Positions 30,751-63,790 of a stretch of 64,000 bases of DNA are shown here, piece after piece. The position numbers and the translations under genes were made by a program. Every line of letters starts with the position of its first letter. The first letter of the stretch is position 1. The notes under the pieces are model-generated. The model had not been told where the DNA came from and made no database searches. It saw nothing but the letters and a program-made list of their open reading frames with translations. Location of the stretch: contig CAVTLK010000005.1 in assembly GCA_963735595.1 (NCBI GenBank), forward strand, positions 877,711 through 941,710, given 5' to 3'. The DNA comes from an uncultured delta proteobacterium (GTDB lineage: Bacteria > Desulfobacterota > Zymogenia > Zymogenales > Zymogenaceae).

Positions 30751-30826
30751 GCGCCCGTAGCTCAGGGGATAGAGCAACGGACTTCTAATCCGTGGGTCGC
30801 AGGTTCAATTCCTGCCGGGCGCGCCA
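30751..30826 (+). tRNA. tRNA-Arg(TCT)
   Basis: GCGCCCG acceptor stem; ACGGA-CTTCTAA-TCCGT anticodon arm; GGTTCAATT T loop; encoded CCA. Confidence 0.97.
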
Positions 30827-32000: not shown

Positions 32001-32110
32001 TGTTTTCTCCTTTCTCATCTAGTTGATGTGAAAGGTATGGTAGAGCTGGGCGTAAGGTCTAATATCACCTCCTTTCTGAGGAAGATAATAGCACCCTTGT
32101 CGCCCAGGTG

Positions 32111-34541: not shown

Positions 34542-34554
34542 CGTTCTCACTCCA

Positions 34555-34830
34555 TTATCCGCTATTCGTGATTTCATCCAAAATAGCTGAAAGTGCCTTC
34601 CCGGAATCCGAGAGCCTCAGTAATATACTGTTGCCTACCCTCGTCTCCTCGATAAATGTCCCGCCCCTCAATCGCGAGAGGGCATCCCTCAATCGTGAGG
34701 TAGTGAGGCCGGATACCTGGGACGCGGACTCCTTATTGAGCACTCCCTTTTCGACGAGCGCGGATATTACCCTCCGGTCATCCTCATGGAGTTTACCGGA
34801 CATCTCAAGGAGACATGTCTTACACAACAT
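34555..34830 (-). CDS. winged-helix DNA-binding protein (TubR-like adaptor candidate)
   Basis: HTH (SGLTTSRLRDALSRL) plus wing (FIEETRVGNSILLRLSDSGK); immediately upstream of the tubulin gene. Confidence 0.65.
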   Translation of the reverse strand: MLCKTCLLEMSGKLHEDDRRVISALVEKGVLNKESASQVSGLTTSRLRDALSRLRGGTFIEETRVGNSILLRLSDSGKALSAILDEITNSG

Positions 34831-35591: not shown

Positions 35592-35865
35592 CTCGAATAT
35601 ATTTATATATGTGAGAACAACAGCACCTTCTGTTTTCTCATTTCGGAGAAAACAGAAGGCAGGGAGGGCGTGACTGTGCGAGCGGACCCCCCGATAAAGC
35701 TTTCGGCGAAGCCGAAAGATTTACGATAGGGGGTCTGCGTGGGCACGCCCGACCGCGTATACAGCAACGAGCAACGCGTCCCATTACATATACCTATCGA
35801 CCACATCAAACGAGAGACCTTTTATATCTGCACCACCGAGAGCCTTTTCAACCCTTTCCTTAGTC

Positions 35866-37732
35866 CTACCAAGCAACTCCCTTTGTAGTGACAACCACTA
35901 CCTCATCCACACCGACGGTAAAATCTCGTGATATATTTTCCATGATGTGATCTGTGACACTCAGTTCAATCTCAATTGCGATAAGTCTACCGGCCTTATT
36001 AACCAGGACATCGATAGACTTCCCGTTAAGGCTCTTTTCGACATAGGCATTGTATCCGAGATCCTCGTAGTACTTCTTTATCCTGCTCTGGTAGGTCTGA
36101 TGTTCTATTGATCCTTTTCCTGCCATCCGCTTTTTTGGAGAATCGATCGCCTCTCTCCCCTTATCCGTTAGTTCAAGATAGACGGATTTTCCTCTTCTCA
36201 CTTCGACGATGTATCCCGTCTCCACAAGCTCCTTCTGAATCCTGTTTCCCATGTAGGCGCTCAATCCCATCGCCATATATCGCTCGGTGACACTCAAATC
36301 GGTGCTCCTTCTCGATATTGATCATGAAGTCCCGGGCCTGAGTCTTTTTAACCCGTTTAACTTCATCCACGCGGAGCTTGAAGTTAGAAGGTTTTTCTCT
36401 CGATGGTTCAGGCTTCTTCTCCGTCCTCGTAGGAGCGGGTTTCCCCTCAGTCTTCGCCAAAACCTCGCTCAGGGCGTTTCCTGGGTTTAATCTTTAGTTC
36501 CATAGTAGGACCTCATATGTCTTTCGACTTCCTCATCGGTGACAAACCGTTCAAGAGGAAAATCGGGGATTACGATATGAAACGGCTCCGGCCACCGATC
36601 AGCGAGTTTTACAATACCCTGGCCCACCGGAAGCTTGTTCAGGAAATCGGCCTGCTCACTCCGTGAGCCGCATCATCCTTGCCATATCCTCGATGTCCTT
36701 ACCGTTGGAGAGGGAAAGACAGATCGTCGCAAAGACATTGCTTTTGACGACATCGGAAAGGGTGTGAGGCATCTGGTCCGCGAAAACAAAGCCAACCCCG
36801 AATTCTCTGATTCTCCGCACCATCTGCTCCATATAGGGTGTCCCAAGTTCGCTCTTATAGTCCTTCTTGAATATTTTGCTTGCCTCATCGAGAAAGATCA
36901 CCTGCCTCAAGGTGCCTCTTTCGGCGCGGTCCAATCTGTAAGTAGAAACCTGTGCCAGCAGAATATTAACGAACAAAGTCTGGAGCTCGTCCATTAGGCC
37001 ATCGAGCTCAAAGACGATATTCTTTTGAAGGAGCATTTCGAGGGAATAGCCCTCATCGCAATCGAAGATATCTCTCGTTATCGTCGCACATACGGCGGCT
37101 TTATTATCGAGTCTCGCAAGGTAGCCCCGTTTATCGTATGAAAGGCCTTTCACTTTTTCTTCCTTTTCAAGCTTCTCGTGTAGGTCAAGTATTGTAGGGT
37201 ACACGTCGCTTCCTTTGAAAACACCGTACAGCTCATAAAGTTCATAAAGCAGGTTTGCCAGTAAAGCTTTTGACGCGGCCAGTAACGCAAACGAGATACA
37301 GAATATGTCGGCAAATATCTGTATCCACTCCACAGGGTCAGTCCCCGGAGGGGGACGAAGGGGATTTATCCTGAAATCCTTCCACCTGAAGATAAGCAAG
37401 TCTTTCGTATATTGGAGGAAATGGCGGTAGTCCCTCTTGAAGTCAAAGAACCAACACGGAACCAAAGGCATGAGCTGATACGCCAGGACTCGGCTCTCGG
37501 TCGTCTTGCCGCTTCCTGCGCGACCTGTTAAGAAGGTATTTTGATTCACCTCCTCAAGAACAAAAGCCGCTCTTTCCGATGTATCCGCCAATAAACCGTA
37601 GGCAATTGGACCCGCGACATCTACGCCGTGCGGAGCGGAGAAAGGAGTCCCGGAAAGGTTCTCGAAGAAAATTTGATATTCCTCCGGGAAATGCTTCGAA
37701 ATATCATCATCGAAGAAGTTTTCTTTTTTCAT
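35866..37732 (-). CDS. HerA/VirD4-like (DUF87) ATPase with C-terminal wHTH and PD-(D/E)XK-like domain, frameshifted
   Basis: GRAGSGKT Walker A; IFLDEA Walker B; IREFGVGFVFADQ; tail GKGSIEH...IDVLV...IAIEIEL. Confidence 0.75.
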
Positions 37733-38159
37733 CGGTAAGTTCCTTGGCCGGCTCTTTAGCCCTTCCCCGGATCAGAGACTTCAGAATAGAAAGAGGTTGT
37801 TTTGCTTCAATCCGGGAGACCTTTCTCCCGTCCCAGGTTATCTTCAAGTCCTTTCGGCAAATGAGGACGCCCGATTCATCGGATCGATCGAGGCAACCAG
37901 GACGAGAGCAAATTACTCTGTGGCAGACGCCACAGAATCCCTCAAGGTCATCTAAGCTCTTTATAAAATGCCCACACCCTGCAGGAACAACGAGGTCCAT
38001 GTTGTTGAGGAATATCCCTCTCTCGCTTACCTCAAATGAGCTTACACGACCTCCGACCGGTATAACCCTTCCGTTTACCAATACGACATTGCCGTAGTAT
38101 CTGGCAACAAATGGTTCGTTGAATTTCCGTGAGAGATATCCGTAGAGCATGGAATCCAT
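37707..38159 (-). CDS. Cys-rich hypothetical protein (possible Zn finger)
   Basis: CGH...CGVCHRVICSRPGC...C; overlaps the ATPase start. Confidence 0.55.
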   Translation of the reverse strand: MDSMLYGYLSRKFNEPFVARYYGNVVLVNGRVIPVGGRVSSFEVSERGIFLNNMDLVVPAGCGHFIKSLDDLEGFCGVCHRVICSRPGCLDRSDESGVLICRKDLKITWDGRKVSRIEAKQPLSILKSLIRGRAKEPAKELTDEKRKLLR

Positions 38160-38206
38160 AGTGGTAAACGTGTATTCTTTACCGTGTTCATCCGTCGTAA
38201 ATCCCC

Positions 38207-38491
38207 CTAAAAGATACTAGCGGCCCAGCCAAAAAAGGCCTTCCCGAGCATGACGAAAAAGGTGATCACGCCGGGAACGAACGAGAATACGATGATGAGG
38301 AGGGTGATCACCAGGCCAAGCTTCATTAAACCGAATAAGAACCGTATCAGCTTCTTGAAGAAATCGTCATCGTCCGGACCCTTTGGAAACTCGAAGGGAG
38401 TAGTGTAGTTGAGCTCGTCTTGTGGGAAGTCCGGATTCTTATAGAAGTCGCCGTATCCCTTGTCCGACGATCCCGAGTTATTGAATGTCAT
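38207..38491 (-). CDS. small membrane protein
   Basis: GGAGG RBS; long hydrophobic C-terminus. Confidence 0.55.
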   Translation of the reverse strand: MTFNNSGSSDKGYGDFYKNPDFPQDELNYTTPFEFPKGPDDDDFFKKLIRFLFGLMKLGLVITLLIIVFSFVPGVITFFVMLGKAFFGWAASIF

Positions 38492-38774
38492 TGTTCCCCC
38501 CCTCCTGAAAGGTAATATTGCCAAACCTGTCTCTCTTGATCTTCTTCTCTCCAGAATCTGATGGGCTGCTATCTGAATTCGACGGTGAATAGGAGTTGTC
38601 CTTATTTTGTTCCTGAGGTTCCCCGCCGAAAAAGCCCTCAAAGAACCCAAATGTAAAATCAAGAGTTGCTTCCACCGGCGCAGCAACGACCCTTCCGGCA
38701 GTAACTCCAAGCGTGTGAGCGAAACAGCCCGAAACTAAGAGAGACGCCAAAACCAGGATCGTGAGTCTCTTCAT
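38478..38774 (-). CDS. small lipoprotein
   Basis: MKRLTILVLASLLVSG-C lipobox. Confidence 0.6.
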   Translation of the reverse strand: MKRLTILVLASLLVSGCFAHTLGVTAGRVVAAPVEATLDFTFGFFEGFFGGEPQEQNKDNSYSPSNSDSSPSDSGEKKIKRDRFGNITFQEGGNNDIQ

Positions 38775-38791
38775 GTTTCTACCCCCTTTAT

Positions 38792-39298
38792 CTAAAGCGA
38801 CCTCCATTCCTCCGAGGTGATGAGCCACGTTCCGTACGACTTTTCGAGGCGCATGGTGACGACGCCCCGATCGGATGCCCCATCTATTGTCGTGACCTGC
38901 ACAAATGTGAGGCATGCGTTGGAATCGGAGATAGATAGAACGCGAAAATCATTGAGTGATAGGTCGATGGAAGAGGAATGGGAAAATACGTTATTGAAAT
39001 AACCCTGTAAGCTCTGATAGTTTAACCCCCGGCCCTGGAACCGGGGGCTATACATCGTCATAAGGTAGGAGACGTTTTTAGACTCCCAGTCGGTCTCCCA
39101 AGAAGAAACGAAATCTCGAAGCTCACGTACGTTTGGATCTTCGGGTGGCGTTGAAACGACAGGTGGTTCTTCTGATGAAGTTCTCGGGGTCCTACTTGAA
39201 CAGAAGAGCGCCCCAAGGACGAACCCAATGAGAACAGCGATAATGAGAATAAGCTGGAAATACTTATTCTCAATAAGCCAAAAGAGTGGTGTTTTCAT
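38792..39298 (-). CDS. membrane-anchored NTF2/SnoaL-like protein
   Basis: N-terminal TM; W..DWE.K......YS..F...and C-terminal WLITSEEW NTF2-like pattern. Confidence 0.6.
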   Translation of the reverse strand: MKTPLFWLIENKYFQLILIIAVLIGFVLGALFCSSRTPRTSSEEPPVVSTPPEDPNVRELRDFVSSWETDWESKNVSYLMTMYSPRFQGRGLNYQSLQGYFNNVFSHSSSIDLSLNDFRVLSISDSNACLTFVQVTTIDGASDRGVVTMRLEKSYGTWLITSEEWRSL

Positions 39299-39301
39299 AG
39301 T

Positions 39302-39607
39302 CTACTCGTCACTTTCTTTCTTTGTGTTCTTGTGCTCCAGCTGCTTCATCATGAACTCTCCGACCGGTGCTGGAAGTACCATCACGGAGTTTAATCCGTC
39401 ATAGCCGAGTCGGAGGCTAACGTTGTTTTGCTCGATCAAACCCATAGCCACGTTATTCACGAGGGGAACCATATGATCCTTGAGTCCCTTCGAACATATC
39501 CCGACTATTTTTACGTCATTTCCGGTTCCCTGGCCTTTTTTCATTGTCTGATCAACGCCATATCCTGCGTTTGCCCCTGTCTTAATTCTGAGATAGACAA
39601 ATTCCAT
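39302..39607 (-). CDS. hypothetical protein
   Basis: GAGGAG RBS; packed within the operon. Confidence 0.5.
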   Translation of the reverse strand: MEFVYLRIKTGANAGYGVDQTMKKGQGTGNDVKIVGICSKGLKDHMVPLVNNVAMGLIEQNNVSLRLGYDGLNSVMVLPAPVGEFMMKQLEHKNTKKESDE

Positions 39608-39619
39608 TAGCGTTCTCCT

Positions 39620-39895
39620 CTAATTAGGTTTACTGTAATCAAACTCGAACTGCTCGAAGAACAGCTCGGTACCTAAGACCATGACTCTATACTTCTCTTT
39701 ACATTCAGCCCCATCCGCGTTAAACCTAATAGGATTGGAGTCGGGGAGAATAAAAAGGACCGGTTCGCCCCTCCTATATATGAAGACGACATGCTCTTCC
39801 GGACGGGCACCCAAGAGCTCAAAGAATCCTGCCCCGGTGATTTTCGTTGGAAGAATCGTCTCTTTGATAACGAATGCCCGAAAATGCCTCTTCAT
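39620..39895 (-). CDS. hypothetical protein
   Basis: ORF packed within the operon. Confidence 0.4.
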   Translation of the reverse strand: MKRHFRAFVIKETILPTKITGAGFFELLGARPEEHVVFIYRRGEPVLFILPDSNPIRFNADGAECKEKYRVMVLGTELFFEQFEFDYSKPN

Positions 39896-40808
39896 TTTCC
39901 ACCCGGTAATATCCGTAGTCCCGTAAGCTGCTCGATCCGGAGAGTATATAAGTAAGAGCACTCCGTGCCTCAATACCTGATATAGATTTTATTGAGCCTG
40001 ATCGAATGAGGATATTGAGCAAAAGAACCAATAGCGTCGGATCACTTGTTTTAACCAGCAGAAGATCGTCTGACAGCAAATCCTCTTTGCGTCTTACTTC
40101 AAACACCCGCCCGTTTGAACAGCATAGAACGAACGAGGCGAGCCACTTCGGATTCTTACTCATGAAAGGATCCTGGCTAAAACGTATTATTTAGGTACAG
40201 CAGGGGAGAATTAAGGAAGGAGAGATGATAGTGTGCGGTGGTTGTATTTTTCTTGTAATCTACCCAACGCTATAGTAGAGTGAAACAATAGGGGGGAACG
40301 GGGTAGATTAGCACTTTGCCTGCCAGGGCGGTCTATGAAGCTCCTATCTCTCCTTTTTCTCTCCAATAATAAGCTGCCATCAAAAAAGAGTCCTAACAAA
40401 TTCTTCTTCCATCTCAATATAGAATAAAGTGGCAGGAAAGTCAAGGAAAATCATTAAAAGCATACGTAATATACTTGTACAGGTATACTTTAATGTCACT
40501 ATTTAAGGACTATTTAACTAGATACATTTCTTCAACTCAAAAGGATTTCTTGTAGGAGCCTTAGTGCTATTAGAAGGCTATGATTTTAGGGGAGAGTATT
40601 GACGGTAAGCTATGAATTACAGAAACGAAAAAGCGGGTACGTTTTTAGGGAAACCGAAGAAGGAGAAATCGAGCAGAGACGGTTTCTAATGCATTCTATT
40701 GCTATCACATCCGATGATGATAATCGCGTTAAATAGGATGGTTTTTCTTATAACTACGGCTATAACCCTTACAGCCCGATTCTCTCCTTCTCTTTTCCCA
40801 TAAGTAAA

Positions 40809-41063
40809 CTACATTACTTGCTTCCTGGGAGGAAAGGTCTGATCCATTAGTTCCACCGTAGGGCTACCGTTTTCTTTGACGGCACGGACCCTATAACCCT
40901 CTTCCTGCATTTCTACTACCCAGTTATATACCTTCAACGCATTTCGCATTAGATCGGTTTTTGAGACTACTCCCGTTCTTTTCGCAAGGCCGTCCATGTA
41001 GTTGAGTGTTTCCTGAGTGAATGCGAACTGTAGTTTCTTTAGCTCAGTTTTCTTGGTTTCCAT
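40809..41063 (-). CDS. ribbon-helix-helix DNA-binding protein
   Basis: KLQFAFTQETLNYMDGLAKRTG.VSKTDLMRNAL RHH pattern. Confidence 0.65.
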   Translation of the reverse strand: METKKTELKKLQFAFTQETLNYMDGLAKRTGVVSKTDLMRNALKVYNWVVEMQEEGYRVRAVKENGSPTVELMDQTFPPRKQVM

Positions 41064-42006
41064 CTCTTACCCCCTTACTCATCAGAATGCATCAGAAAAA
41101 AGCTTACGGAAAGAGGGGGTTGTGCTTTCAACACACGCATTCTGATAGAGTTCCCTTCGATAATTTTGTGGAATAGCATGTCTTACCCAACATATCGAAG
41201 AACTCTCTTAATGGAAACCAGGTAGAATAAGGTATATTCTTTATACCGTATTCGATGTTTATAAACTCTTCAGCCTCATAAGGTAGCTTTATTTTCTTGA
41301 GAACGGGGATGGGTTCGCAAATGCCGTAATGATCTTCAATATAATAAAAAACCTTTGGAGTTTGAAGAGCCTCTCTTATTTTCAGCAATTCGGAAAGTAA
41401 TCGCTGGGCACTCTTACCATCATCATAGTCAAATATATTTACCAGGAAGAATACGCGAGTTTTATTGTCTGAGTCGATTATTAGTATCTCGCGTGAGAGT
41501 CTCGAACGAGTCAGGTGCTTTCGAATATAGTAAGTAATTCTTCTTACTTTTTGGAAAAACATGCCCCTAGCCTTCTGAGAGAAGGGAAAATCTTGCAAAT
41601 TCTCTTGTGGTCGGTACCCTATTTATGACTTCTTCTCGGCGCATTCCCCAAACCCATAAATAAGACCGTTAAAGATCTCGTATTTTGGGTCGGTTCTTGG
41701 TTCAACGTAGATGATTTGTGAACCCGGTTTGCCTCCATCTTGAAAAGAGTCATCCCTTCCGTCCGTCCTTGCCATGGGCATCCCCTAAAAAAATGTCCAT
41801 GAAAGCTGTTTAGACGTAGTTTATTGTATATTATGCATGATAATAAGTCAAGAATAATGTTGGAATGTGGATAGTAAATATACTTATTATTGTACGAGTA
41901 TAGGATACAATTTTAGCTCCTATTTGTAAGCTTAGTAGCGCCGCATACTAGATGTTAAGCTCATTTACTGATACTCGATCTAAGGATAGGAAGAAAAAGA
42001 AAAAAA

Positions 42007-42210
42007 TCAAACTTCCTCCACGTCAGCGTCTTCCCAATCATACTTAACATTGTCATCACCAATATAGGGATCGAAATCAATATCAATGTAGTCGAAATCC
42101 ATAGCCTTATGGAGAGCTTCTTTTTTCGACCCTGCTTTCACGGAAAAGGTCACTGTCTCCACTTTATGGAAGTCTACTATCACTTCAAAGGTCTTTACTG
42201 TGGAGGTCAT
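42007..42210 (-). CDS. small acidic hypothetical protein
   Basis: KTFEV.V......VKA.SKKEA pattern, common in mobile elements. Confidence 0.5.
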   Translation of the reverse strand: MTSTVKTFEVIVDFHKVETVTFSVKAGSKKEALHKAMDFDYIDIDFDPYIGDDNVKYDWEDADVEEV

Positions 42211-42330
42211 TTTTGACCTCCCCTCTCTTCCTTCAGCAGATGCTCCTGGAAGGCATGTAAGTCTCCAATGATGCCTGTATCTCCCTATGGGAAGGAGCCT
42301 TCATCACTGATATCTTCAACTATAGGAAAA

Positions 42331-42513
42331 TCACCCTGATCGATCAGGGTGACTTCTTTCATTGATATCTTCGATGCTCCTGAAGGTACACGCTTTGGCT
42401 GCACCTTCCACCAACTTTGTCAATTCAGGAATCGAGGTATAAAACCACTCCTCACCAACCACGATTTTAAATCCTTTTCCTGCTTTTGTTCTGCATAGTT
42501 TTACATTTGCCAT
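42331..42513 (-). CDS. small hypothetical protein
   Basis: AGGAGG RBS; 60 aa. Confidence 0.5.
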   Translation of the reverse strand: MANVKLCRTKAGKGFKIVVGEEWFYTSIPELTKLVEGAAKACTFRSIEDINERSHPDRSG

Positions 42514-42805
42514 TTTAGACAACCTCCTTTGTTTCATAGTGTGCCCCTGAGCCGAACAGCCGATAATGCTTTAGAGCAGCGACCTCAAAGAGGGAAAGCT
42601 TTATCGAGATGGGAGGCGTGCACCGCCGATGAAACCGAAAAGGAGGTTGATGGCAAATAAGCAGACCGAAAAAGCAGAAAAGAGAACAGGTTGGTGAAAA
42701 AAAGCTTGACATATTCTTCTGGGTGTTCTATAAAGGTAGTCAAGGAAGGCGAGAAAGCCTTCCTTTTTTGATAAAGAAGGAGGGGCCAAGAACGGCCCCT
42801 CTTTT

Positions 42806-45027
42806 TCATTCAAACATCGAAAACTGTACTGTACCCTTTTTCTCCTCTTTCAAAATAGACTCAACCTCATCGGCTTTGATGGCTACCCGCTTTGCTCCCT
42901 TTTTCTGTTTCCCCGTGAAGGTCAGGAAGTCCACATAGACAACCCTGTCGGAATCGGGCTCTGCTACGATGTGTTCTTCGGTGGTATCTCCGAATTCGTT
43001 GATCTCCGCGACTTCTTCGACCGCATCAGTAGCCCTATAGACAGCGTTCTTCTCGTTGAGCTTCCTCCAGATGTTCTCCGCTCCTTCGCCGGAGATCCCC
43101 TCCATCAAGTGTCTTGGCTAGAGCGGTCGTCATGTCCTCGCCCGATGTCATCGCCAGGAGTCCTTCCTCTGAAAACTTCCCTTCGATGGCAAGGGACGCT
43201 TCCATCTTCTTTCCCATGAGCTGCATTGCCCGTTCCTGCATCGTCCCGGCATAGAAGAGATAGTAGACTTTCACCGGCTTCTTCTGCCCGATCCGCCACG
43301 ATCTCCTTGACGCCTGCCTCAAGGTGAAGACCGAATACCCCGTCTGATAGAAGATCAGCGTCGGGAAGTCGTAGAGGTCAAGCCCCGTCTGAACCAGCTT
43401 CGGATTGGCGATGATCACTTGGATTCCCTGTCTTACCTTCTCCTTCACCCATTCCTCCCGTTTCTCCGGGTCCACCGTAGATCGCATCACCTCGGCCCGA
43501 AAACCCTTCTCAGAGAGGAGATTTTTCAGCCTTACTGTTACGTCCTTTGTCGCGGTAAACTGGCAGTAGACGAACGTTTTGCGGCCTTCCTTGACCTCCC
43601 TCGTGATGAGCTCGATCAGCTCCCGCTCCTTGGCGTAGGTGAAGTCCTTTGGAAGCTCCCTCGGCAGGGCAATCGGTTTGGTCGGATTGCGGGGATCGAC
43701 GATGACCTCGTTGTCGAACGGCCGGTCGGGATAGGAGAGGAGGGTATTGATGTAGGTCCCAAGCAGTGCCTTACTTCCCTTCGCCAGGGCTTCCCTCACG
43801 GCCTTCTTGAGATCATCCTCAACCTCGGAATATGCCTCCTTCAGTTCCTCATCCATCCTGACGACAACTACCTGTTCGGTGATCGGGGGCAGGTTCGTGG
43901 CGATATCCGTAAGGTGCAAAAAGGCGGTCTTCTCCATCAGGTGCTGGGAAAAGACGAGGGGAGAGATCCCCGGCTTCCTCTTGACGCTGGTCGATACCTT
44001 CTTGCCCCGCGAGCACACATTATCCTCAGCAGAATACCTCGTTACCGTCTCAAGGACTCCGTATCGGGCGATCCAGTTGGATACCCTCCGGTATTCGATG
44101 TCCTCCTCCTTCATGGTATGGGGCGATATCCGGTAGAGGATGTAGAAGATATCGTCGGCGTATCCTCCCACTACCGTTCCGGTAAGCGTGATGACCTTCT
44201 TACAGGCCGAAGCCAAAGCGCCGAAGGCGTTACCCTGGGCGGTGTCCCCTCCCTTCAACTCATGCACCTCGTCACAAATCAGGAAATCGTAGTACCCATT
44301 GAGGTACTTCTTGATGTACTCGGCGACCGCAAACCTCCTCAGCTTATCCTTATCCGCCTGCCAGAGGGGAGACGTGCATGACCGGCAGTATCTCCGGTTT
44401 CTCTTGAGGTAGTCGAGGCCCGCCGGATTACCGTCGCCGTCAATGATCAGTTCTCCGCATCCGGGGCAGTAGTAGTCCAGCCTTTGACCTGCTCTTGATA
44501 TATACCGGCCTCCAGGCGTAGGAGAGCTTTGCCCGGTCCTTGCTGATGATGTAATACTCGGGTCTCTTGTTCTTCTTTCCCCTCTCGATCTTCATCACGT
44601 CTTCGAGGCTTCTCAGGATGATGGATTGGGCGTCCGGTATCGTCTCCTTTACTTCACGAGCCCACTTCTGGGTGAGGTGTCCGGGGCACATGATGAGGAC
44701 CCGCGGGCTCCTCCCGTGATTGGTGAAGATATAGGGCACCGAGGCACCGATGAGGCTCTTTCCGGTCCCCATCTCTCCCACCACCATCGCGGACTTCTGT
44801 TTCTTCAAGACCTCGATGAGCCCCATGATGGTGTCGCCCTGGGCCTGAAAGGGCTTCCTCAAGAGGGTATCCAGTCTCTGATCCCACGTAGTTCCCGGCA
44901 CAAACAGAGGCTCCGCCTCGTCCTGAATCTTTCCGGCAAGGAGAGGGCCGTACTTGGTCAGGTAGCCGGTGATGTCGTTGACCTCTCCCGATAACGAAAT
45001 GTTCTCTTCAAAATCCGATGTCTCCAT
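42806..45027 (-). CDS. SNF2/DEAD-like helicase of ICE type, frameshifted
   Basis: VGEMGTGKS, (D)EVHELK, TLTGT, VQTGLDL, QASRRSWRIGQ. Confidence 0.85.
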
Positions 45028-45556
45028 GCTTCACTCCCTCCGATATGATTGAATCGAGTTGATTCTCGCTCGTCCTCAATCTGAGGACTTTGGTTGTTCC
45101 CGACAGCTCCTCTACTGCCTCGTTCTCTTTGAGACGGGCATAGATCCACCCCGCCCATTGGGACAGTGCCGGCACGGAAAAGGTCGCCCTGATGGTATTG
45201 AAAAGGATCTCCTCCGTCTTTTCTCCTTCCGGGACGAATACCATCACCGGGCCTTGTTCTCTCCCGAAAAAGAGCTCCGAGAGCACGATCTGGTGGAGCA
45301 TCCCCGAGCCGAGCCGTGAGCTCATGATCCGGTTCTTGTGGTAGTAGGGAGCCGATAACTCAAGGATATCGTTTTCCCTCTCGATCCGGACGTTCATCCC
45401 CCGTACCACGGCTGCCGACAAGCCCTTGACGGCGCTATCCTGCCCGACGATGGACAGGAGATAGAGCAGGCTGTACTGATCGTAGGCGTAGCCGTCGGTA
45501 TGCGCCTCGATGTGGACGTTCCTTGAGTAGTCGGTCATCATGACTTTCTGAAGCAT
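45008..45556 (-). CDS. hypothetical protein between methyltransferase and helicase
   Basis: 182-aa ORF translationally coupled in the operon. Confidence 0.6.
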   Translation of the reverse strand: MLQKVMMTDYSRNVHIEAHTDGYAYDQYSLLYLLSIVGQDSAVKGLSAAVVRGMNVRIERENDILELSAPYYHKNRIMSSRLGSGMLHQIVLSELFFGREQGPVMVFVPEGEKTEEILFNTIRATFSVPALSQWAGWIYARLKENEAVEELSGTTKVLRLRTSENQLDSIISEGVKHGDIGF

Positions 45557-45574
45557 CGCTTTCCTCCTTTCCTC

Positions 45575-46591
45575 TCACATGAGGGTGATGATGTCTCCCT
45601 CCCTCGTGAGGATCTTGATGGTTACCTGATACGACTCGACCTGATGTTCTTCGGTGACCTTGTCCTTCACCTCCTGATAGGTCTGGACGACCTTTGCCAC
45701 CTTGCCCCGGACGATGTGTCTCTCGTCCCCTTCACCCACCAGGCCGTCGAGACAGCCGGAGGCCAGGAGTAGCCCCAGGTGTCCCGAATGGAGCGGGAGG
45801 GGTGGTCTCTTGAGCTTCGCGTTCTTCCTCGAAAACATCTCGTTCAGCCTCTTCCAAACGGGCGAGTTTCTGACTTCCCGTTCCAGCTCCTCAAGCTCGA
45901 CGACGCTCGACCTGAAAAGAGGTGATCTCATCACCGGTTGGGACTTCATAGACATCCCCGGCCATGACCGGTATCTCGTCGAGGGCAAAGCCCGGCACCT
46001 GGGCGAGGTTCAGGTATTCGGTCTCGTCCGGCTCCGTGTTCCTTTTCTTTCTCCCCATGACGACGATCTGTTTGTACCCTTCATATTCTCCGTCCATGAA
46101 GCGATAGACCTGGATGTTCTCGAACTTCGAGCTGAGGGTTTTGGCGATCGATTTGTCAAGTCTCGATTGGGGGATGATGTAGACGAGTATCCCTCCGACT
46201 TTGAGGTACTTGATGGTATTGATGAGAAAGGTCTTTTCCTTCCTCTCGGTCATTCTCTCTACGTTATCTCCCATCGTCTCGAAGTCGTAGGGCGGGATTG
46301 AGCCAGAGGATCGAAAAGGCGTTGTTGCTGATCCGGGCCTCCTCGTATCCGCAGGCAAGGACATGATCGAGGTTTGACTTTGCCTCTTCCGCTCTCTTCT
46401 TGTCCAGCTCGATTCCGTAGGTCTCCGCATGACATCCTCGAACCAGCTTCTTCACCGCCAGCCCTTCGCCGCAGCAGGGGTCCAGGATCGTCGACCTTCT
46501 TTTCCGGTAACTTCAGGAATGACCTCACCCGTTCAACGACGCTCAAAGGCGTCGGGTAGTATCCCATCTTGATCTGACCTTCAAGTCTCAT
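45575..46591 (-). CDS. DUF6094-like adenine methyltransferase, frameshifted
   Basis: KMGYYPTP, DPCCGEG, YGIELD, L(N)PPY, KQIVVMG, RPPLPL..GHLGLLLASG.LDG. Confidence 0.75.
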
Positions 46592-46655
46592 AGTGTTCTC
46601 CTCAAAACGAAAAGGGCCGGAAAAGCCCGGCCCCCTTCTCGAAAAAGGTTGATAA

Positions 46656-46796
46656 TCAGGCGACGATCTGCTCGGCGTAGTATTCAAGCTCCATCTCGTC
46701 CCCGCAGTTGAGGCACACCATCAGCGTCCCTTCGTCCCTCTCGGATAAGATCCAGTTGACCGATCCGCACTTCGTGCACACTGGTTCGCCACACAT
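46656..46796 (-). CDS. 46-aa zinc-ribbon protein
   Basis: CTKCG...CLNCG; AGGAGG RBS. Confidence 0.55.
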   Translation of the reverse strand: MCGEPVCTKCGSVNWILSERDEGTLMVCLNCGDEMELEYYAEQIVA

Positions 46797-47720
46797 ATCT
46801 TCCTCCTGAAAATAAAAAAACGGGCCGAAGCCCGTCTCCAAAAGAACGCTGTCCTGATAATTAGCTCTTTCTTCTTTCCCTGATTTCTTTCAGATACTCC
46901 AGTCCCTTGTCGAGGATCGCCGCGTTGATCTCGAACTCCTCGATCAGCTTTTTCCGAGCTTCCCTGGTATTCGCTTTGTTGATCTCGTTTCTCTTGATGA
47001 TGAGCGCGATGATCCCCAGGGCGAATTTGTCCTGGATACTTCTTTGATAACAACACCACCATCACCTCCTTCCAGAAAAACAAAAAGCGGACTATGAAAG
47101 TCCGCTTCCATGCGGTGAGATCGCTCCCACCAATTCCTATATTTCTATTTCTACAGGCTCTAAATGCCTGAAATAACTGAAACCCCTTTGCTCTCATCCT
47201 CGATTGCCGAGGCAGGGTTTTATCCGATTGGATGTTTCTTCATTATTTAAGAGTGGTAACTCCTATATAAAGGTTTCGGTTTGAAGTAAGTATTTTTTGA
47301 TCCAAGTAGAAATTACTTTCCTGAGATTGCGAAAAGATCTGATTGTTCGGTAGTAGGTCGGTTTGAATCGCGCGCCCATTTTTGGCCAAAGACCTCAATT
47401 TAACCGTTGAATCACCGTCCCCGAAAGCTAAGTTCATAGATTTCATAAGTGGGGTGGTGTCTAAGGTATATTCGATTAAATGTGGGATGGAACAAAAGAC
47501 GTCTTTTTAGAATCTGAACGAACGTGGTTCGATTAGCAATGGAATTTGGGGTAAAAGTGGTTATATTATACGTGGGATAACGCCAAGGTGCCAAGCTATC
47601 CCACTATTAATTAACCCTGTAGTAATATCAAGGACTTACATTCGGAAAAGTCATTGACAAGTTGTAAACTTGTGGGATATGATGTTTCCGGTATATCGGA
47701 AAAGGGTGGAGGTGAGTAAA

Positions 47721-48168
47721 ATGGGACTCACAGCGAAGAATATAGCAGAATACTTTTTGATGAAAACCAACAATGAAACTGGTGAATCTCTTTCTAATAT
47801 GAAAATTCAGAAACTGGCTTTATTATGCTCAAGGTTTCCATCTTGCAAAATATGATTCTCGCTTATTCAATGAAGAAATAAAAGCATGGCCTTATGGTCC
47901 AGTAATTAGAAGTATTTATGATGAATATAAGAAATACCGCTCTGGAGCTGTTAAGCCACCGGAAAATGGTATTGACATCAAAAAGTATACAAAAGAGATA
48001 AGAGAACTTCTCGAAGATATTTGGGATGTATACGGACAATATTCAGCTTTTAAATTATCAGAATTTACCCATCAAGAAGAACCCTGGAAAGAGGCCTTCG
48101 ACAAGAGACCGGGGAGCACTATATCGGAAGAAACCATGAAAGCCTATTTCAAGACTCAATTGGTTTAG
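47721..48168 (+). CDS. Panacea (DUF4065/SocA/GepA) antitoxin, frameshifted near 47817
   Basis: SNMKIQKL / YYAQGFH...F.EEIKAWPYGPV...L...THQEEPW motifs. Confidence 0.85.
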
Positions 48169-48659
48169 TGTGTATGGGTAAGCGGGTTAAGGGGAAACAA
48201 GGGAAAGAGCAGGGACAAATCGTTAAGGTTCCAAAAGTCAGAGTGGAGGACTGCAACAAGCGGACTCCACTTTTTTGCATGGAGTATATGACAGACGATA
48301 GGTATGATTTGAATTGCTGTGATGATGTCGCGAGAGAAGCGTTTTTTGATGCCCTAAAAAGGAGATGCGTGTTAACGTGGAATGATATAAATCAACAGGG
48401 AAGGACCGAATTAGGCACAGAAATTATTCCACCCAAAAAGATAAAAATAGATATACCACACAATTTCGGCCCAAACTTGGGTTTAAATATTCTTTCTTTA
48501 CACACCAAAGGAAAAACAAAGAATCGTATTATGGGAGTTAGAATGGGAGAGTATTCCATATATTTTGGTACGATCCTGATGGAAATATTTACCCACACGA
48601 TGGAAAAAACCGATAAAAATCTCTCCCCTCCAGTCTATTTTTATTCTTGTATTGCTTGA
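48168..48659 (+). CDS. putative toxin partner of the Panacea antitoxin
   Basis: Coupled downstream; LTWNDI...GTEIIP...RIMG pattern reminiscent of RelE-like toxins; C-terminus possibly frameshifted. Confidence 0.55.
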   Translation: MCMGKRVKGKQGKEQGQIVKVPKVRVEDCNKRTPLFCMEYMTDDRYDLNCCDDVAREAFFDALKRRCVLTWNDINQQGRTELGTEIIPPKKIKIDIPHNFGPNLGLNILSLHTKGKTKNRIMGVRMGEYSIYFGTILMEIFTHTMEKTDKNLSPPVYFYSCIA

Positions 48660-48680
48660 CCGGTCATGCTACAATAAGCC

Positions 48681-48896
48681 ATGACAAAGAAGAAAACCCC
48701 AATTGATATTAATCAGCTCGCTAAATTCATCACCGATCAAGTGACAGAAGAGAAGCCAGTCGAAGAAGACTTACCGGCAAAAGAAAAGAATCCCGCTGCC
48801 GTAGCTCTCGGAAGGCTGCGGGGGCTAAAAGGTGGAAAGGCAAGATCAGAGAAACTTAAATACGCTTTCTGGTGGACCGGCGTGAGTAGATGTTAG
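48681..48896 (+). CDS. small basic IS-associated protein
   Basis: DINQLAK...KNPAAVALGRL.GLKGGKAR..KL motif. Confidence 0.6.
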   Translation: MTKKKTPIDINQLAKFITDQVTEEKPVEEDLPAKEKNPAAVALGRLRGLKGGKARSEKLKYAFWWTGVSRC

Positions 48897-49724
48897 TTAA
48901 ATTGGTCGACTTCTCGTACATTACCGTCGATCTGCAATGTGCTATACGTGATGACATATCGTCTTAGGGATTTATTCCTGTCCACAAACTGGCGGAGACA
49001 TTTGATTGATTCTGGACAAGGCACGTTACTTAACTTAAAAGAGTGGCTAACAAAGATTTCCACTGGATCGCTCTGGATATTCCGGCTCTATTCGATTGCA
49101 AGACTAAGGAAATTGTGAATCCGGGCTAACATCTTGAGAGGCGTTATTCGCGCAGGTAGTGTTTTGAGCACGCAAGAAGTCAGATAGACTAGTTCAAGAT
49201 GGGGTATTAAATAACTGCCATTAATCCGGAGATCTCGTCACGAACCCATGCCCCCAATAGGCCAAGAAAAAGAAAGCCACCCGATCGTCAGATATACCAG
49301 CAAGAATGGCCTCATGCATTCATCGAGCCATGCAAGTCGAAGCGTAATGCTGTCACCAGAGGTTTGCGAGGTATGTGAAAAGTGGCATCGTATGGATATT
49401 ATCGTTTTGAATCCACTCATCAGAGACTACTTCAGAATGAATATTCGGGAAACTATCCATCTCCCCGGAGGCCTTCACTTATAAGCAGCGCTTCAAAATT
49501 TGGCCCATGTGTAATATCACCCTGAGACTCGCAAAGGTGAGGTCCGACAAGAGCTTTTGATGTTAAAGATGAAACATTACATGCTTAGTAAAGAAATGTA
49601 GTGATGAAGAAATCTGGATATACACAGTTGGCCTATAGAGACAACATGACCAAACGTATCTAGTATTCATTAATACATTTGAATAAATCAGAATGAAAGA
49701 TGCCTCAAGAATTATCTGAAATTT

Positions 49725-50162
49725 ATGGATCTCCAGTGTAAGAAAGTCCAGTGCGATGAGATTTGGGCCTTCTGTTATGCAAAAGAAAAAAACGTGCCGG
49801 AAGATAAAAAGGGTCATTTCGGGTATGGTGACGTTTGGACGTTTACGGCTATTTGTGCGGATTCTAAACTCGTTCCCACTTGGCACATTGGAAGGCGCGA
49901 CATAGAGAATGCGACGCTCTTCATGAATGATTTGGCCGGTAGACTGGCAAATAGAGTGCAATCAACTACAGACGGTCATCGGATGTACTTAGAGGCCGTG
50001 GAAGATGCTTTCGGGTCCGAAGTCGATTATAGCCAGCTCGTCAAAATATATGGTACATCTCCCAAAGCCGAAAAGAGATATAGCCCCACTCAATGCAACG
50101 GTGCGGAGAAGCATAGAATCAGTGGGAACCCGGACAGCGAGAACGTATCCACGAGTTATTGA
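49725..50162 (+). mobile_element. IS1-family DDE transposase fragment
   Basis: QCDEIWAFC..KEKN, GDVWTFTAI.ADSKL, TTDG..Y, DYSQLVKIYG; truncated at both ends. Confidence 0.75.
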
Positions 50163-50235
50163 CCTGCCCGCTCCATCCTAACCGAAAACTATATAAACCC
50201 GTTCATCTTACCATTCCCATGAAGGAGTGGTAACA

Positions 50236-50679
50236 ATGGAGCACTACTATATCTCAAAACTGGAAATGATCCTTGGGGGTCAGTTGAAAGAGACAGAATC
50301 AGAAAACTATAAAAGCACCAACGACATAGACATCCTTGAAAGCCTTTTGAGACAGAGCCCCGAGAATCTGAAGCAAACCATCGACCTTTTATACGCCCAG
50401 ATAGAGGAACGGGAGAAGATAAAACACAAGACCCTTTACGAGCTTCAGGACCAGATCATGAAGGTCCAGTGCCTGATCAGTCGTGCGTCATACGGATATG
50501 AAAAAAGCCCTTTCACCAAATCAATCTTAGACAAAGCGTGGATAGACCTGGAGCAAGAGAAGTTGAAGGAGGAGATCAACTCATTCAAGGATGTATCTTA
50601 TCTCAACACACGGCTTGTCTATATGATCGGAAAATACAAGGAGGAAAAAGGCAAACATGACCTGATAAAGAAAAAATGA
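50236..50679 (+). CDS. helical/coiled-coil hypothetical protein
   Basis: RBS; ATGA overlap with the Cas4-like gene. Confidence 0.6.
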   Translation: MEHYYISKLEMILGGQLKETESENYKSTNDIDILESLLRQSPENLKQTIDLLYAQIEEREKIKHKTLYELQDQIMKVQCLISRASYGYEKSPFTKSILDKAWIDLEQEKLKEEINSFKDVSYLNTRLVYMIGKYKEEKGKHDLIKKK

Positions 50680-51317
50680 AACTGATACCGTTAATCGATA
50701 CCCTTCTGGAATCACGGGAAGAGAGCCGGAACGATACGAGAGACTACTTCCACATCAGCGAGGTAGACAAATGCCCCCGGGCGATATTCTACAAGATGAA
50801 GGGATACCTCGGAGAGAAGTTCAAGGCCGACATGTACCGGAAGCTCGACAACGGGGATTACGTCCACAAGCGGATCATGTCGATCCTGGTGAGCCTCGGC
50901 ATCGTCGTCGCCTCGGAGATCAGGATACCGGAGAGCAACCTCTTCCACGGAAGGGCCGACGCCATCGTCACTATCGACAACGAGCTTTACGTCCTTGAGA
51001 TCAAGTCCATGAACCGATACGCCTTCGACAAACTCGAAGCGCCCGACCCCGCCCACCTGAAACAGATCCAGCTCTACATGCACTACTTCAATATCAACAA
51101 GGGGATCATCCTTGTCGAGAATAAGGACAGCCAGGAGATGAAGGAATTCATCGTCACCAGAGACGATAGAATACTCAACGAGATATTCATCTCCTTCGGC
51201 ATCCTGAAAGAGATGACCCAGGCCAACACCATCCCCCCAAAACCCAATTTCAATCGGGATGAGAAATGGAGGTGCGACTACTGCCCGTACCGGAAAGTCT
51301 GCGCTCAACATGATTGA
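50676..51317 (+). CDS. solo Cas4-like PD-(D/E)XK nuclease with Fe-S cysteines
   Basis: CPR, GDYVH, GRAD, LEIKS, QIQLY and C-terminal CDYCPYRKVC. Confidence 0.8.
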   Translation: MKLIPLIDTLLESREESRNDTRDYFHISEVDKCPRAIFYKMKGYLGEKFKADMYRKLDNGDYVHKRIMSILVSLGIVVASEIRIPESNLFHGRADAIVTIDNELYVLEIKSMNRYAFDKLEAPDPAHLKQIQLYMHYFNINKGIILVENKDSQEMKEFIVTRDDRILNEIFISFGILKEMTQANTIPPKPNFNRDEKWRCDYCPYRKVCAQHD

Positions 51318-53295
51318 TGTCAACGAGTGTCTCAGGAGATTGGAACCGGTCCTCGGAGAGAGGGCGGATAAGCTCTGGCTCATCTACCTGGCGTCAGACT
51401 TTGAACAGAAGAGAAAGATCGAGGAGATCATCAGGATACTCTGCGAGCGGCACCTAAACCAGGACTACAAGGAACGAGAGAAGATATTCCTTCCTCCCCC
51501 ACCCAAAAAGATCGCCGATGGAGATTACAGGGTCGGAGGTGTGTTATATCCGGAGGGCTTGTACTGTCCCTTCGGGATCAGAGAAGAAGAGTGGATACAG
51601 CATATCGGCATCTTCGGGAGATCGGGGAGCGGGAAGACCAACGTCGCCTACGTCATCATCAACGAGCTGAAGAAGAAACAAAAGCCGTTTCTCATCTTCG
51701 ACTGGAAGAAGAACTATCGGGGCCTGATGGGAGAGGATGATTATAAGGACATCCTCGTCTTCACCGTCGGCACAGGGACCTCGCCCTTCTTTTTCAATCC
51801 CCTCATCCCCCCACCCGGTACGCCGCCGAAGGTCTGGCTGAAAAAGCTCGTCGAGATCACCGCGCATTCGTTTTTCCTCGGGGCCGGGGTCATGCACCTG
51901 CTCCAGAACGCGATAGACTTCTCCTACAAGAAATACAACGTCTACGACGGCAACCCCGAGCGGTATCCCACCTTCCGGGATATCCAGGAGTATATCGACA
52001 AGATGAGGACACGGGGAAGGGAGATGCTCTGGCACGCCTCCGCGAAAAGGGCGCTGGGGAGCCTCACCTTCGGGCCGATGGATGAGGTGGTGAACAGTCC
52101 CGTCTCGTTTTCCATCGAGGAGCTGCTTGAGTAGAGATATCGTCCTGGAGCTTGACGCCATGACCGACGACTGCAAGACGTTTTTCATCGAGGCGCTTCT
52201 GCTCTGGATACACCACTACCGGATGCACGAGGGCAAGCGGGAGGAGTTCAAGCACGCCATCATCATCGAGGAGGCCCACCATATCCTGCTCAAGAAGAAA
52301 CAGCAGGCCGAGGGAGGCGAGGCGATCACCGACGTGGTATTGAGGGAGATCAGGGAGCTGGGGGAGTCCATCATCCTGATAGACCAGCACCCGTCGCTCA
52401 TCAGTGTCCCGGCCCTCGGGAACACGAACATCACCATCGGCATGAACCTGAAGCACGGGGCCGACGTGAGCGCCCTTGTCAACGCGATGCTGCTGACCAA
52501 AGACCAGTATCATTACCTCGGGATGATCGAGGTCGGCAAGGCGATCGTGAAGATACAGAGCAGGTATCCGAATCCATTTCTGGTATCGTTTCCCTGGGCC
52601 AAATCTCAGCGGAAAATCTCAAACGAGGACATCAAGGAGCGGATGGAGGGATTTTACAGGAAATACAGCCTGAAAAAGCTCGAACGCCAGAGACAGAAGG
52701 AGATATCGGTTTCATCCCATTATGATCTCTCCCCCCAGGAGCGGGATTTCCTGATCGATGTTTTCACCAATCCCTTTTCCAGCATGTCCGAGAGATACAA
52801 GCGGCTCGGCTTCAACAACCGCCTCGGGAACCAGATCAAGGACTGCCTGATCAAGAAAGGGGCTCTTCAATCCCGTCGATATCTCCGTCAGGAACGGGAG
52901 GATAAAGCTCCTCGACCTCACCGAGAAAGGAGCCACGATTCTTATCCAGATGGGCTACTCAGCGAAAGCCCCAAAAGGGCGAAGGCGGCATCGAGCACGA
53001 GTACTGGAAGAAGAAGATCGGTGATCAATACCGGAAGAAGGGATACGAGGTCTTCGAGGAATACGAGATCGGCAAAGGAAAGAAGGTTGACCTGTTCGCC
53101 AAGAAAGGCGACGAGAGGATCGTCATCGAGATAGAGACGGGGAAGTCGGATATCGAGGAGAATGTCAGGAAGGTGTCAGGGCTTGATTGTCAGGTGGTGT
53201 TCTATGCGGTGAATGGGGAGGTGGAGGGGAGGATAAGGGAGATTGTAGAAAAGGAGAATTCCGGAAATATTAAAACCCGGAAGGTTGGCATTTGA
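51310..53295 (+). CDS. HerA/VirD4-like (DUF87) ATPase with C-terminal wHTH and PD-(D/E)XK-like domain, frameshifted
   Basis: GRSGSGKT, IIIEEAH, IRELGESIILIDQ; tail GGIEHEYW...VDLFA...IVIEIETGKS. Confidence 0.8.
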
Positions 53296-54575: not shown

Positions 54576-55811
54576 TTATAGAATACCGGAGCCTTTTGAG
54601 GCGTTACACTCCGGGCACGCGACTTGCCCGTTTAGAACGGTAGTCTTGCCTCCTTGCGACCAGGGTTTTATGTGATCAGCCTCCCAATTGTCCCAAGTGC
54701 ATCTTACGCCTTCGCATTTCGTCTTTACCTGGCAAATTCCGCCTTCTCTGCGATAGATTGCCAAGCGCTGCTCACGGGTAAAAATCCTTTGGTCATCTTT
54801 AAGCTCAATATCGGGAATCGACTCAAAAAACTTGCGAAGGAGAAATTCGTGGCGCCAGCTAATTGAATCTATGCTGTCAGTGCTATGGCTTATTTTTTCG
54901 TGATATGAGATTAATTCGGGATCAACATCGTCTTCAGAGAGTTTAATTTCGTTTCTTCGATATGTTTCAAAACCTATAAACCATTTTGCCAAATCCTCAT
55001 ATCGGTTCAGAAATACATAACGCTCAAGCAGATTAGATGCCATCGTATATAGGGAAATCACGTTATACCGTTCGAGTTCCGGGGTTTTTTCAGGGAACGC
55101 CTTCAGTAGAAAATCAAGGACACGCCTTATCTTTTTCGCAATTTGCCCGCTCTTATCAAAGTTGGTATTTTCCTTATATAGCTTATTAAGATTTGCATTC
55201 TTAACATTACAGGGACCTCCCTCTAATTCGATGAGGGTTACTTGTGCTGCTATATGATCAAAGGTGTAGCGTGAATTGTCGAATCCGCAGCTAAGGAAAA
55301 AGCGATGCTCTGAAAGTTCCTTTACGAAATCACGCATATTGCCGGACATCGCATTGCGCCTTTCTTGGGCCTTAAGCGTTGTCCCGTTTTGTAACCGTAA
55401 AAACATTTCCCTTACTTCTTCTTCGTCATCAGTCTGAATAATTACAATATCGAGTGGATAGATATCGAAGCGGGTCCTTAGTTCTATAGGAAGGTCTTCG
55501 TACTTCTTCGATGAAATCGAAAAACCGTCAATGTCTTCAATTTCATTTGTTAGAGCAAAGCCGCCGGAGTGAAACTCCCAAATAGCTCTTAGTCGCTGTT
55601 GACCGTCAACGACTTCATATTTTTCGGGATTAGATCGAATTTTTCTCCAATATAGTTTAGGGATATCGTAATTCTGTAAGACCGTATTGATAAGGAGTTG
55701 CTTTTGTGATAGGCTCCAAACTGCCGGTCGTTGGTAATCGGGATTTGTATCGATCTGCTTTCTGATTCCGCAGATTGTAGTTAATGGAAGGGGCTTCTTA
55801 GAAATATCCAT
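54576..55811 (-). CDS. DUF262 + HNH endonuclease (GmrSD-like)
   Basis: PDYQR..VW, VVDGQQRL, FLRLQ.G; C-terminal C..C...EADHIKPWSQGG.T...NGQ..C..CN. Confidence 0.88.
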   Translation of the reverse strand: MDISKKPLPLTTICGIRKQIDTNPDYQRPAVWSLSQKQLLINTVLQNYDIPKLYWRKIRSNPEKYEVVDGQQRLRAIWEFHSGGFALTNEIEDIDGFSISSKKYEDLPIELRTRFDIYPLDIVIIQTDDEEEVREMFLRLQNGTTLKAQERRNAMSGNMRDFVKELSEHRFFLSCGFDNSRYTFDHIAAQVTLIELEGGPCNVKNANLNKLYKENTNFDKSGQIAKKIRRVLDFLLKAFPEKTPELERYNVISLYTMASNLLERYVFLNRYEDLAKWFIGFETYRRNEIKLSEDDVDPELISYHEKISHSTDSIDSISWRHEFLLRKFFESIPDIELKDDQRIFTREQRLAIYRREGGICQVKTKCEGVRCTWDNWEADHIKPWSQGGKTTVLNGQVACPECNASKGSGIL

Positions 55812-55837
55812 ATTTTCGTCCTTTGATTGTTACGCCA

Positions 55838-56317: not shown

Positions 56318-56341
56318 GGTCTATCTCATAGCTTTTTAGAG

Positions 56342-63636: not shown

Positions 63637-63790
63637 TATACACAACGCATACACACATCAGATCCGATATGCAAACCGAAACATACACACACCATACACA
63701 CATCCCGAATTTGAGGGAATCAAGCCCCAGGGACCCCTTTAACAGGGGGACATACACAACGCATACACACACCACATCACACATACACAC
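63637..63790 (+). repeat. seven YATACACAM nonamers, iteron-like
   Basis: Copies at 63637/63648, 63682/63693, 63751/63762 (pairs 11 bp apart) and 63782. Confidence 0.8.

Follow-up and report, generated by a model that had tools for sequence, protein, structure and literature searches.

The window analyzed here, a 64,000-nt stretch at the end of contig C5 of the 3.6-Mb genome of an uncultured delta proteobacterium (G000 in locus labels), carries two paralogous genes, A and B, that code for HerA/VirB4-like ATPases fused or adjacent to a winged helix-turn-helix (wHTH) and a PD-(D/E)XK-like nuclease domain. Both belong to the backbone of an island that is integrated at a tRNA-Arg gene and truncated by the contig end. 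Together, they could form the DNA-transfer machinery of the element by a non-canonical route, a reading that we favor tentatively and place a little below an even chance.

Architecture of the two paralogs

The initial annotation described two divergent paralogs of a HerA/VirD4-like ATPase fused to a wHTH and a nuclease tail. Their divergence was borne out: in the genome, A has no paralog but B, and B none but A (32-37% by tblastn; 30.7% identity over 303 core columns), and the shared motifs GRAGSGKTT/GRSGSGKTN, FDxKxxYR, NPLxPPPGTxP, YPT, IVxELD, Walker B, ERY, and EH...D...EIE were found at both loci. The fusion applied to B, one gene of 660 aa, but not to A, a 414-aa ATPase followed by a separate 238-aa open reading frame (ORF). 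Single-base assembly errors account for most frame breaks; the contigs used to correct frames came from relatives (under 90% to 99% alike) in other sequencing runs.

Gene B (51310..53295, + strand, 660 aa after correction) codes for a helical N-domain, the ATPase, the wHTH, and the PD-(D/E)XK-like nuclease. A search with its first frame gave 727 proteins of at least 481 aa, the best 120 being mostly 650-730 aa long. The intact protein P0001 (659 aa) matched the window frames at 99, 96, and 80%, and the closest relative, L010 (662 aa), was 94% identical in DNA with three single-base gaps. The extra bases of the window at 52129, 52856, and 52962 were absent from short-read contigs of other runs. 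B is thus one fused gene, because its homologs are intact and the contigs lack the three extra bases.

In the AlphaFold model of P0001 (predicted local distance difference test, pLDDT, 87), a three-helix N-domain is followed by the ATPase (residues ~60-435), a long helix, the wHTH (470-550), and an alpha/beta domain (555-659). The ATPase fold matched DndH-C (Z 33.1), VirB4-C (30.1), HerA (27.1), and TrwB (23.9), and Foldseek was concordant. PF01935 was matched over its cut-off, and the hallmarks of FtsK/HerA membership, namely Walker A and B, the sensor Gln, the Arg finger, and the helical insertion, were all present, with invariant motifs (42/42). The marks of a VirD4-type coupling protein were not found: PF02534 gave no match in five genomes holding A/B-type genes, PF10412 aligned over 40 residues only (20.6 bits), and the model has no N-terminal membrane helix. 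In an ATPase tree of 46 rows, four of them on long branches, B formed one clade (100/100, 20 rows), the A types were diverse, and the window A grouped with two fused relatives and one split relative (100/100). A single B clade beside diverse A types suggests an old pairing.

B homologs were confirmed at 273 genome loci, and 80 of these, from Planctomycetota, Desulfobacterota-like groups, Acidobacteriota, Chloroflexota, Ignavibacteria, Elusimicrobia, archaea, and others, were kept for neighborhood counts. A gene coding for a 150-aa coiled-coil protein without a Pfam family (50227..50679, + strand, in the window) was present at 71 of the 80, in 70 cases upstream on the same strand, and at six of the nine loci without it, the contig extends less than 170 nt upstream. 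The coiled-coil protein is a near-obligate partner of B; an Atlas search with it returned no usable match. Between the partner and B lies an accessory gene for a Cas4-like PD-(D/E)XK protein (50676..51317, + strand), which is also found at L010, L072, and L084. Other neighbors of B were Cdc6 (28 loci), a tyrosine integrase (23), a ThiF cassette (12), a MoxR set (9), and true Replic_Relax proteins (6), and no VirB family was seen among the 45 recurrent ORF clusters on which this annotation is based. Stand-alone Replic_Relax genes, with no VirB recognized within 10 kb, occur at L031, L057, L069, L077, L086, and L089. The ThiF cassette with three unannotated genes stands beside B in Planctomycetota-type elements (L025, L034, L036, L052, L053, L056, L058, L061, L063, L069, L079). 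A subclade of B marked by REIREFGE/REIREYGE has no nuclease (L052, L056, L058, L059, L061-L063, L065, L066, L073, L076, L079, L082, L083, L088), and near two of its members, L056 and L065, an A-type operon has a separate nuclease ORF.

Matches were found in 14 of 401 genomes of the phylum, with two candidates scored per genome, and among viral contigs, where phage packaging ATPases would be expected, one of 19 pattern matches was a partial match, in the B alignment only. Literature searches, which covered neither subscription papers nor the supplements of PMC10853773 (these may list members), gave no description of the A/B family, and the accessible part of PMC4158269 contained nothing specific on it.

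The nuclease tail and the operon of paralog A

The tail was aligned from 57 of the 61 sequences found, leaving out two of A type and two near-duplicates. Its model (pLDDT 94) matched a MarR-type wHTH (Z 11.7) and, in the C-terminal domain, AF1548 (Z 9.9, root-mean-square deviation 3.0, 98 aligned residues, model 90-191), with weak matches to the nuclease domains of Can2/Cdn1, Bax1, EndoMS, and SfsA (E 1e-4 to 1e-3). H, G, E, D, and E were invariant in 57/57 tails, and the second Glu of ExE was conserved in at least 90%. These residues suggest a likely active PD-(D/E)XK-type nuclease site in which ExE replaces ExK. The likeness to Replic_Relax-type nucleases proposed earlier proved weak: none of the 57 tails matched Pfam Replic_Relax (PF13814) at E≤0.05, but true Replic_Relax members near B loci score over its cut-off, and HHalign gave a weak 45%, confined to the wHTH and the His helix. 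A six-frame PF13814 search of five genomes gave no match, with controls equally silent, and no relaxase was among the matches listed in the structure searches. The tail profile reached 4,283 clusters at 50% identity (E≤0.001). Two genomes, G075 and G224, have the tail as a free gene, with membrane genes and an integrase next to it; in G075 the ATPase and the tail are two genes apart, and in G224 the B ATPase is tail-less.

Paralog A lies on the minus strand, with the ATPase at 36487..37732 (414 aa, one assembly insertion) and the MarR-type wHTH plus PD-(D/E)XK-like ORF at 35784..36503 (238 aa, three assembly insertions), so the tail ends at 35784 and not at 35866. According to the contigs of other runs, the extra bases are at 36658/36662, 36475, 36303, and 35879, with none at ~36502. 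Over 35740-36800, one contig of X2 spans the whole stretch with four gaps, and X5 shows three gaps within 36113-36799. Together, the contigs mend four of the five A breaks, and the ~36502 break stays; the fifth break being kept in the relatives' contigs, assembly error is ruled out as the cause of all of them, and the single-gene architecture first proposed for A had to be abandoned. The start of the tail ORF overlaps the ATPase stop, with GAGG 7 nt upstream. In a complete sister element of another genome (G001), A is split at the homologous codon, and there too the start codon overlaps the ATPase stop and is preceded, at 7 nt, by a purine-rich site, although the two ATPases are only 55% identical. 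This arrangement points to translational coupling, a programmed frameshift being a conceivable alternative. Intact fused relatives of A also exist (P0121, 643 aa; P0122, 661 aa; 9 matches).

Overlapping the A start is a gene for a 150-aa Cys-rich partner (37707..38159, - strand), whose homologs stand directly upstream at at least seven A-type loci. Upstream of it lie three small envelope genes (38207..39298, - strand) coding for a membrane protein, a lipoprotein-like protein, and a membrane-anchored NTF2 protein of Csd6/Pgp2 type, assigned on the basis of PF24125, the same gene order in L091 and L100, and PDB 7o21, 4xzz, and Pgp2. Among the 43 metagenome loci compared, for which all A neighbor counts are lower bounds, many have a Cys-rich gene directly upstream and, preceding it, small membrane or lipoprotein-like genes from several unrelated clusters. 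Further A loci hold other Cys-rich proteins in the partner slot, and some A-like genes (L109, L113, L111) are paired with a coiled coil instead. The NTF2 protein was also considered as a VirB8 and rejected: a shallow three-sequence profile matched Csd6/Pgp2-type domains and no VirB8 entry. At L091:4911-8270 and L100:309-3668, a 1120-aa HTH_17 plus phosphoribosyltransferase-like protein is coded upstream of the A operon; the window has none.

Just behind the A nuclease gene lies a 51-nt imperfect inverted repeat (35685..35735, - strand), a candidate cis site. Its predicted hairpin fold had a z of -4.1 (0/200 shuffles). It is present once in the genome, is identical in G001 including 70 nt around it, and occurs in L097 with a different loop. 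The idea that each tail is followed by a hairpin was rejected, L097 alone having the motif among the full-length loci folded. A likeness between MOBC nick sites and a hexamer preceding the hairpin was considered and dropped, the hexamer being absent from L097. From the hairpin region to the adjacent wHTH gene (34900-35330), the window has purine-rich repeats, including three 12-nt-spaced copies at 35158-35205 and a 30-nt pair at 34916/35062, which might be a protein-binding array.

The island and its complete sister element

The island begins behind tRNA-Arg(TCT) (30751..30826, + strand), its integration site, where GC content falls from ~58% to ~46%, with a tyrosine integrase gene next to it (30888..32018, - strand; PF00589, E 2.7e-28). 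The tRNA was the sole match in an Rfam scan of the window. Low-GC DNA runs from the integrase to the contig end, and many genes in it are frameshifted. The tRNA and adjacent integrase in the window are thus those of an integrative element, and the full repeat pair was seen in G001, where a complete 46,133-bp element (G001:C48:1486-47618) lies between perfect 47-bp repeats of a tRNA-Ala 3' end (47/47).

The first half of the G001 element comprises, in order, the integrase, cargo, the tubulin-like gene, a wHTH gene, the hairpin, A, its partner, membrane genes, and cargo. The second half consists of an SNF2/DUF6094 block, cargo, the coiled-coil gene, the Cas4-like gene, B, defense cargo, small genes, a short XerC-like recombinase, and cargo. 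Of 41 relatives, two had the element. In DNA, B and the SNF2 block were 92-94% identical to the window, A was 52-55% identical in protein, and the integrases were 25% identical. Such uneven identities suggest a modular element, and the different tRNA, the divergent integrases, and the presence in 2/41 relatives argue that it is mobile.

Pfam scans covered 62 ORFs of the window and 32 of G001, where five cargo ORFs were judged by eye only. The earlier statement that VirB, HUH relaxase, and phage structural genes are not recognizable in the window was correct for the 62 ORFs, and no type IV secretion system (T4SS), relaxase, or capsid match was found among the 32. VirB4, mating-pair, and MOB relaxase genes, which a canonical integrative and conjugative element (ICE) would have, were absent from both sets. 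No canonical partners were seen just outside the window either. The minimal transfer or replication system proposed at first is partly supported: the G001 element bears out a mobile element that has a translocase and a DNA-processing domain and no T4SS, but the A tail is a separate gene, an outcome that the initial annotation had named as refuting its reading, and transfer itself is deduced.

Several backbone genes accompany A and B. The block of a DUF6094 methyltransferase, a hypothetical protein, and an SNF2 helicase (42806..46591, - strand, with frame breaks) is found beside B in L010, L072, and L084 too. The leading regions of conjugative elements typically contain SNF2/DUF6094, ArdC, and RadC genes. 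An FtsZ/tubulin-like GTPase (33440..34577, - strand, one frame break; PF00091 weak) has an intact 402-aa ortholog in G001, and the gene upstream of it codes for a small winged-helix protein (34555..34830, - strand; weak Pfam wHTH match) with the same slot in G001. This pair (33440-34830) could be a partition module. The exchangeable defense cargo of the window, GmrSD-HNH, an Eco57I-like methyltransferase, and PLD-SNF2 (54576..63458, - strand), is replaced in G001 by ABC-3C and a type I restriction-modification system, with the A/B backbone fixed. The backbone resumes at 63448..63999 (+ strand), 96% identical to G001, and reaches the contig end; within this conserved terminal backbone, three ATACACAAC-type repeats (63638-63790) are found in G001 too. 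Small ORF fragments lie in 47670-50162. The region C5:542340-547684 repeats part of 46890-47285 and the beginning of the coiled-coil gene, which suggests a remnant of a related element.

In a genome of the same genus, the island at this tRNA is another one, 13 kb long, with a 55-bp repeat. Contig C1 has a 49-bp degenerate copy of the tRNA-Arg end, adjoining the DNA that follows the same-genus island, so the far end of the island in the window is probably unassembled. Behind this degenerate copy (G000:C1:1018424-1018596), ~110 bp are similar to the inner end of the G001 element and also to two places on C2, and appear to be an end sequence common to several islands. The low-GC ends of C1 and C4 (G000:C1:1030000-1077780; G000:C4:1-75000) were rejected as the remaining island: their 92 ORFs are housekeeping genes, with the type IX secretion genes PorP and GldM on C4. 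This DNA is likely that of another organism joined into the assembly.

Function and relation to known systems

FtsK/HerA ATPases are hexameric DNA motors. In the favored reading, each paralog would be a ring-type DNA pump paired with a wHTH restriction-like nuclease, the nuclease acting as a relaxase-like cutter. After excision by the integrase, the A nuclease would bind and nick a cis site, possibly the adjacent hairpin, and the A ATPase would export the DNA, with its Cys-rich partner and the small membrane or peptidoglycan-associated proteins linking it to the envelope. B with its coiled coil might act in the cytoplasm as a translocase-nickase, either readying the substrate or helping it to become established in the recipient, and uptake may lean on host functions, as in Thermus transjugation. 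In favor of this reading are the complete G001 element with its scan results, the constant backbone beside changing defense cargo, the spread of B homologs over many phyla including archaea, the second paralog within 10 kb of B at 7/80 loci, and a further pair in G298, where A stands beside a tRNA with B 37 kb away. The ATPase folds, the CedD match described below, the invariant tail residues, the TraX-like domain order, the free tail genes, the membrane proteins of A operons, the lack of PF02534 and PF03135 matches, and the single partial match in viral contigs point the same way.

Several observations weigh against DNA transfer. Transfer, excision, and nicking are predictions from the genes. 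At least 15 of the 80 B loci stop after the wHTH. Most B loci have no A paralog within 10 kb. The close relatives P0121 and L097 carry a fused A, only three elements are known to have the hairpin, and the tails do not match Replic_Relax. No VirB6-like polytopic channel or pilin is recognizable in the A operon, which codes for single-span proteins only. Finally, the top fold match, DndH, and the PADLOC matches (mad8, E 2e-11 to 2e-16; DndH; HerA) are defense ATPases.

These last matches, the likeness of the tail to Mrr/AHJR/Hjc-like restriction endonucleases (REases), the defense genes flanking B, and the reading of related HerA/FtsK neighborhoods as defense in the accessible part of PMC10853773 would fit translocase/nucleases of HerA type that scan and cut foreign DNA, like DndFGH or HerA-effector systems. 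We consider such a role unlikely, as PADLOC matches were confined to part of the ATPase core (best 41.7-58.5 bits for defense HerA), the partners had no cognate match, recognized defense genes are exchanged while A/B stay constant, A is operonic with membrane genes, and the nuclease-less B subclade still has its partner. It is similarly improbable that the modules serve the excised circle in replication, resolution, or segregation, by nickase-primed replication or FtsK-like pumping, with the tubulin-like gene, wHTH, and hairpin as a partition set. Such maintenance would agree with the absence of a recognized replication initiator from the complete G001 element, with Cdc6 near B at 28/80 loci, and with the tubulin-like gene and wHTH downstream of A, but it leaves the envelope genes of A and the cross-phylum spread unexplained; and B is not simply an initiator, because many Cdc6-bearing elements also have B.

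We give still less credence to A as a CloDF13-like coupling protein with a MOBC-like relaxase, that is, an integrative mobilizable element using the T4SS of another element. The separate wHTH-REase gene after the ATPase gene, the HHalign score, and a weak Atlas lead (score 0.84) to a cluster with 33% Replic_Relax members suggest it. However, the ATPase has no membrane anchor, PF02534 (VirD4) was matched neither by the ATPases nor in five genomes holding A/B-type genes (the control matched 5/14), and PF03135 (VirB4) was unmatched in this genome. True Replic_Relax genes also stand separately near B at 6/80 loci, so the tail is not a Replic_Relax stand-in there.

For many genomic islands, no means of transfer is known. 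The A/B family is large, crosses phyla and domains, travels with swappable defense cargo, and is missed by profiles of type IV coupling proteins (T4CPs), relaxases, and defense systems. If transfer is true, it would be a new route of gene flow; if defense is, a large unlisted system. The locus offers test material in a complete 46-kb element, a naturally free 238-aa nuclease, and an adjacent candidate cis site. A wider proposal, which we find rather doubtful, is a cross-domain class of self-transmissible integrative elements that carry defense cassettes among uncultured anaerobes and archaea and in which two long-diverged HerA/VirB4-like pumps replace the T4SS and HUH relaxase, each with a wHTH-nuclease module that can be fused or separate, and one of them linked to the envelope and working at a neighboring hairpin origin.

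The comparison with known systems draws on the accessible parts of the papers cited. TdtA of the Thermus thermophilus ICEth1 expels DNA with the help of nucleases and without a T4SS (PMC5365140). ICEth1 resembles our element in tRNA integration, 47-bp repeats, a tyrosine-type recombinase, and a HerA-like hexameric ATPase plus nucleases instead of a T4SS (PMC5365140), but has one ATPase with separate NurA and type II REase, whereas our element has two ancient paralogs whose tails are of wHTH-PD-(D/E)XK type, along with envelope genes and a coiled-coil or Cys-rich partner for each. The MOBC relaxase TraX has a wHTH and then a restriction-like domain (PMC12857230), and MOBC proteins (TraX of pAD1, MobC of CloDF13) share with our family the order of wHTH and PD-(D/E)XK and the pairing with an FtsK/HerA-superfamily ATPase (PMC12857230). 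However, the tails here do not match Pfam Replic_Relax, have a smaller Hjc/Mrr-like nuclease, and are often fused, and the ATPase, unlike MOBC coupling proteins, is soluble and not of PF02534.

The Orc/CDC6-linked 'HerA/FtsK capture' is similar in combining HerA/FtsK, wHTH, and REase in mobile neighborhoods (PMC10853773), its defining feature being an Orc/CDC6 with an inactive REase inserted before the wHTH (PMC10853773). In contrast, no Cdc6 was found in the window or the G001 element, and the representative Cdc6 scanned among those near B is a 351-aa AAA-lid-wHTH protein with no room for such an insert. The ATPase fold is closest to DndH-C, but DndF/G are absent here. In the Ced system, two paralogous ATPases, CedB and CedD, work together (PMC11868833); the best NCBIfam match was the DNA-transfer ATPase CedD (NF053655, E 1e-25, 90 bits against a cut-off of 600), and paired VirB4/HerA-like ATPases without VirB4 are common to both (PMC11868833). 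Ced is, however, a chromosomal crenarchaeal system that imports DNA, with CedA channels and no nuclease tail (PMC11868833). The ATPase fold is also shared with HerA-NurA and with the defense systems HerA-Sir2, HerA-DUF4297, and TdpAB, but no Sir2, DUF4297, or NurA partner occurs here, and the wHTH and nuclease lie at the C terminus or are encoded by the next gene. Taken together, the family fits none of the named families tested (MOBC/Replic_Relax, T4CP, defense HerA, Orc/CDC6 'HerA capture'), and although it fails the MOBC and coupling-protein profile tests, the element comes closest in its working to ICEth1 or a MOBC/coupling-protein pair.

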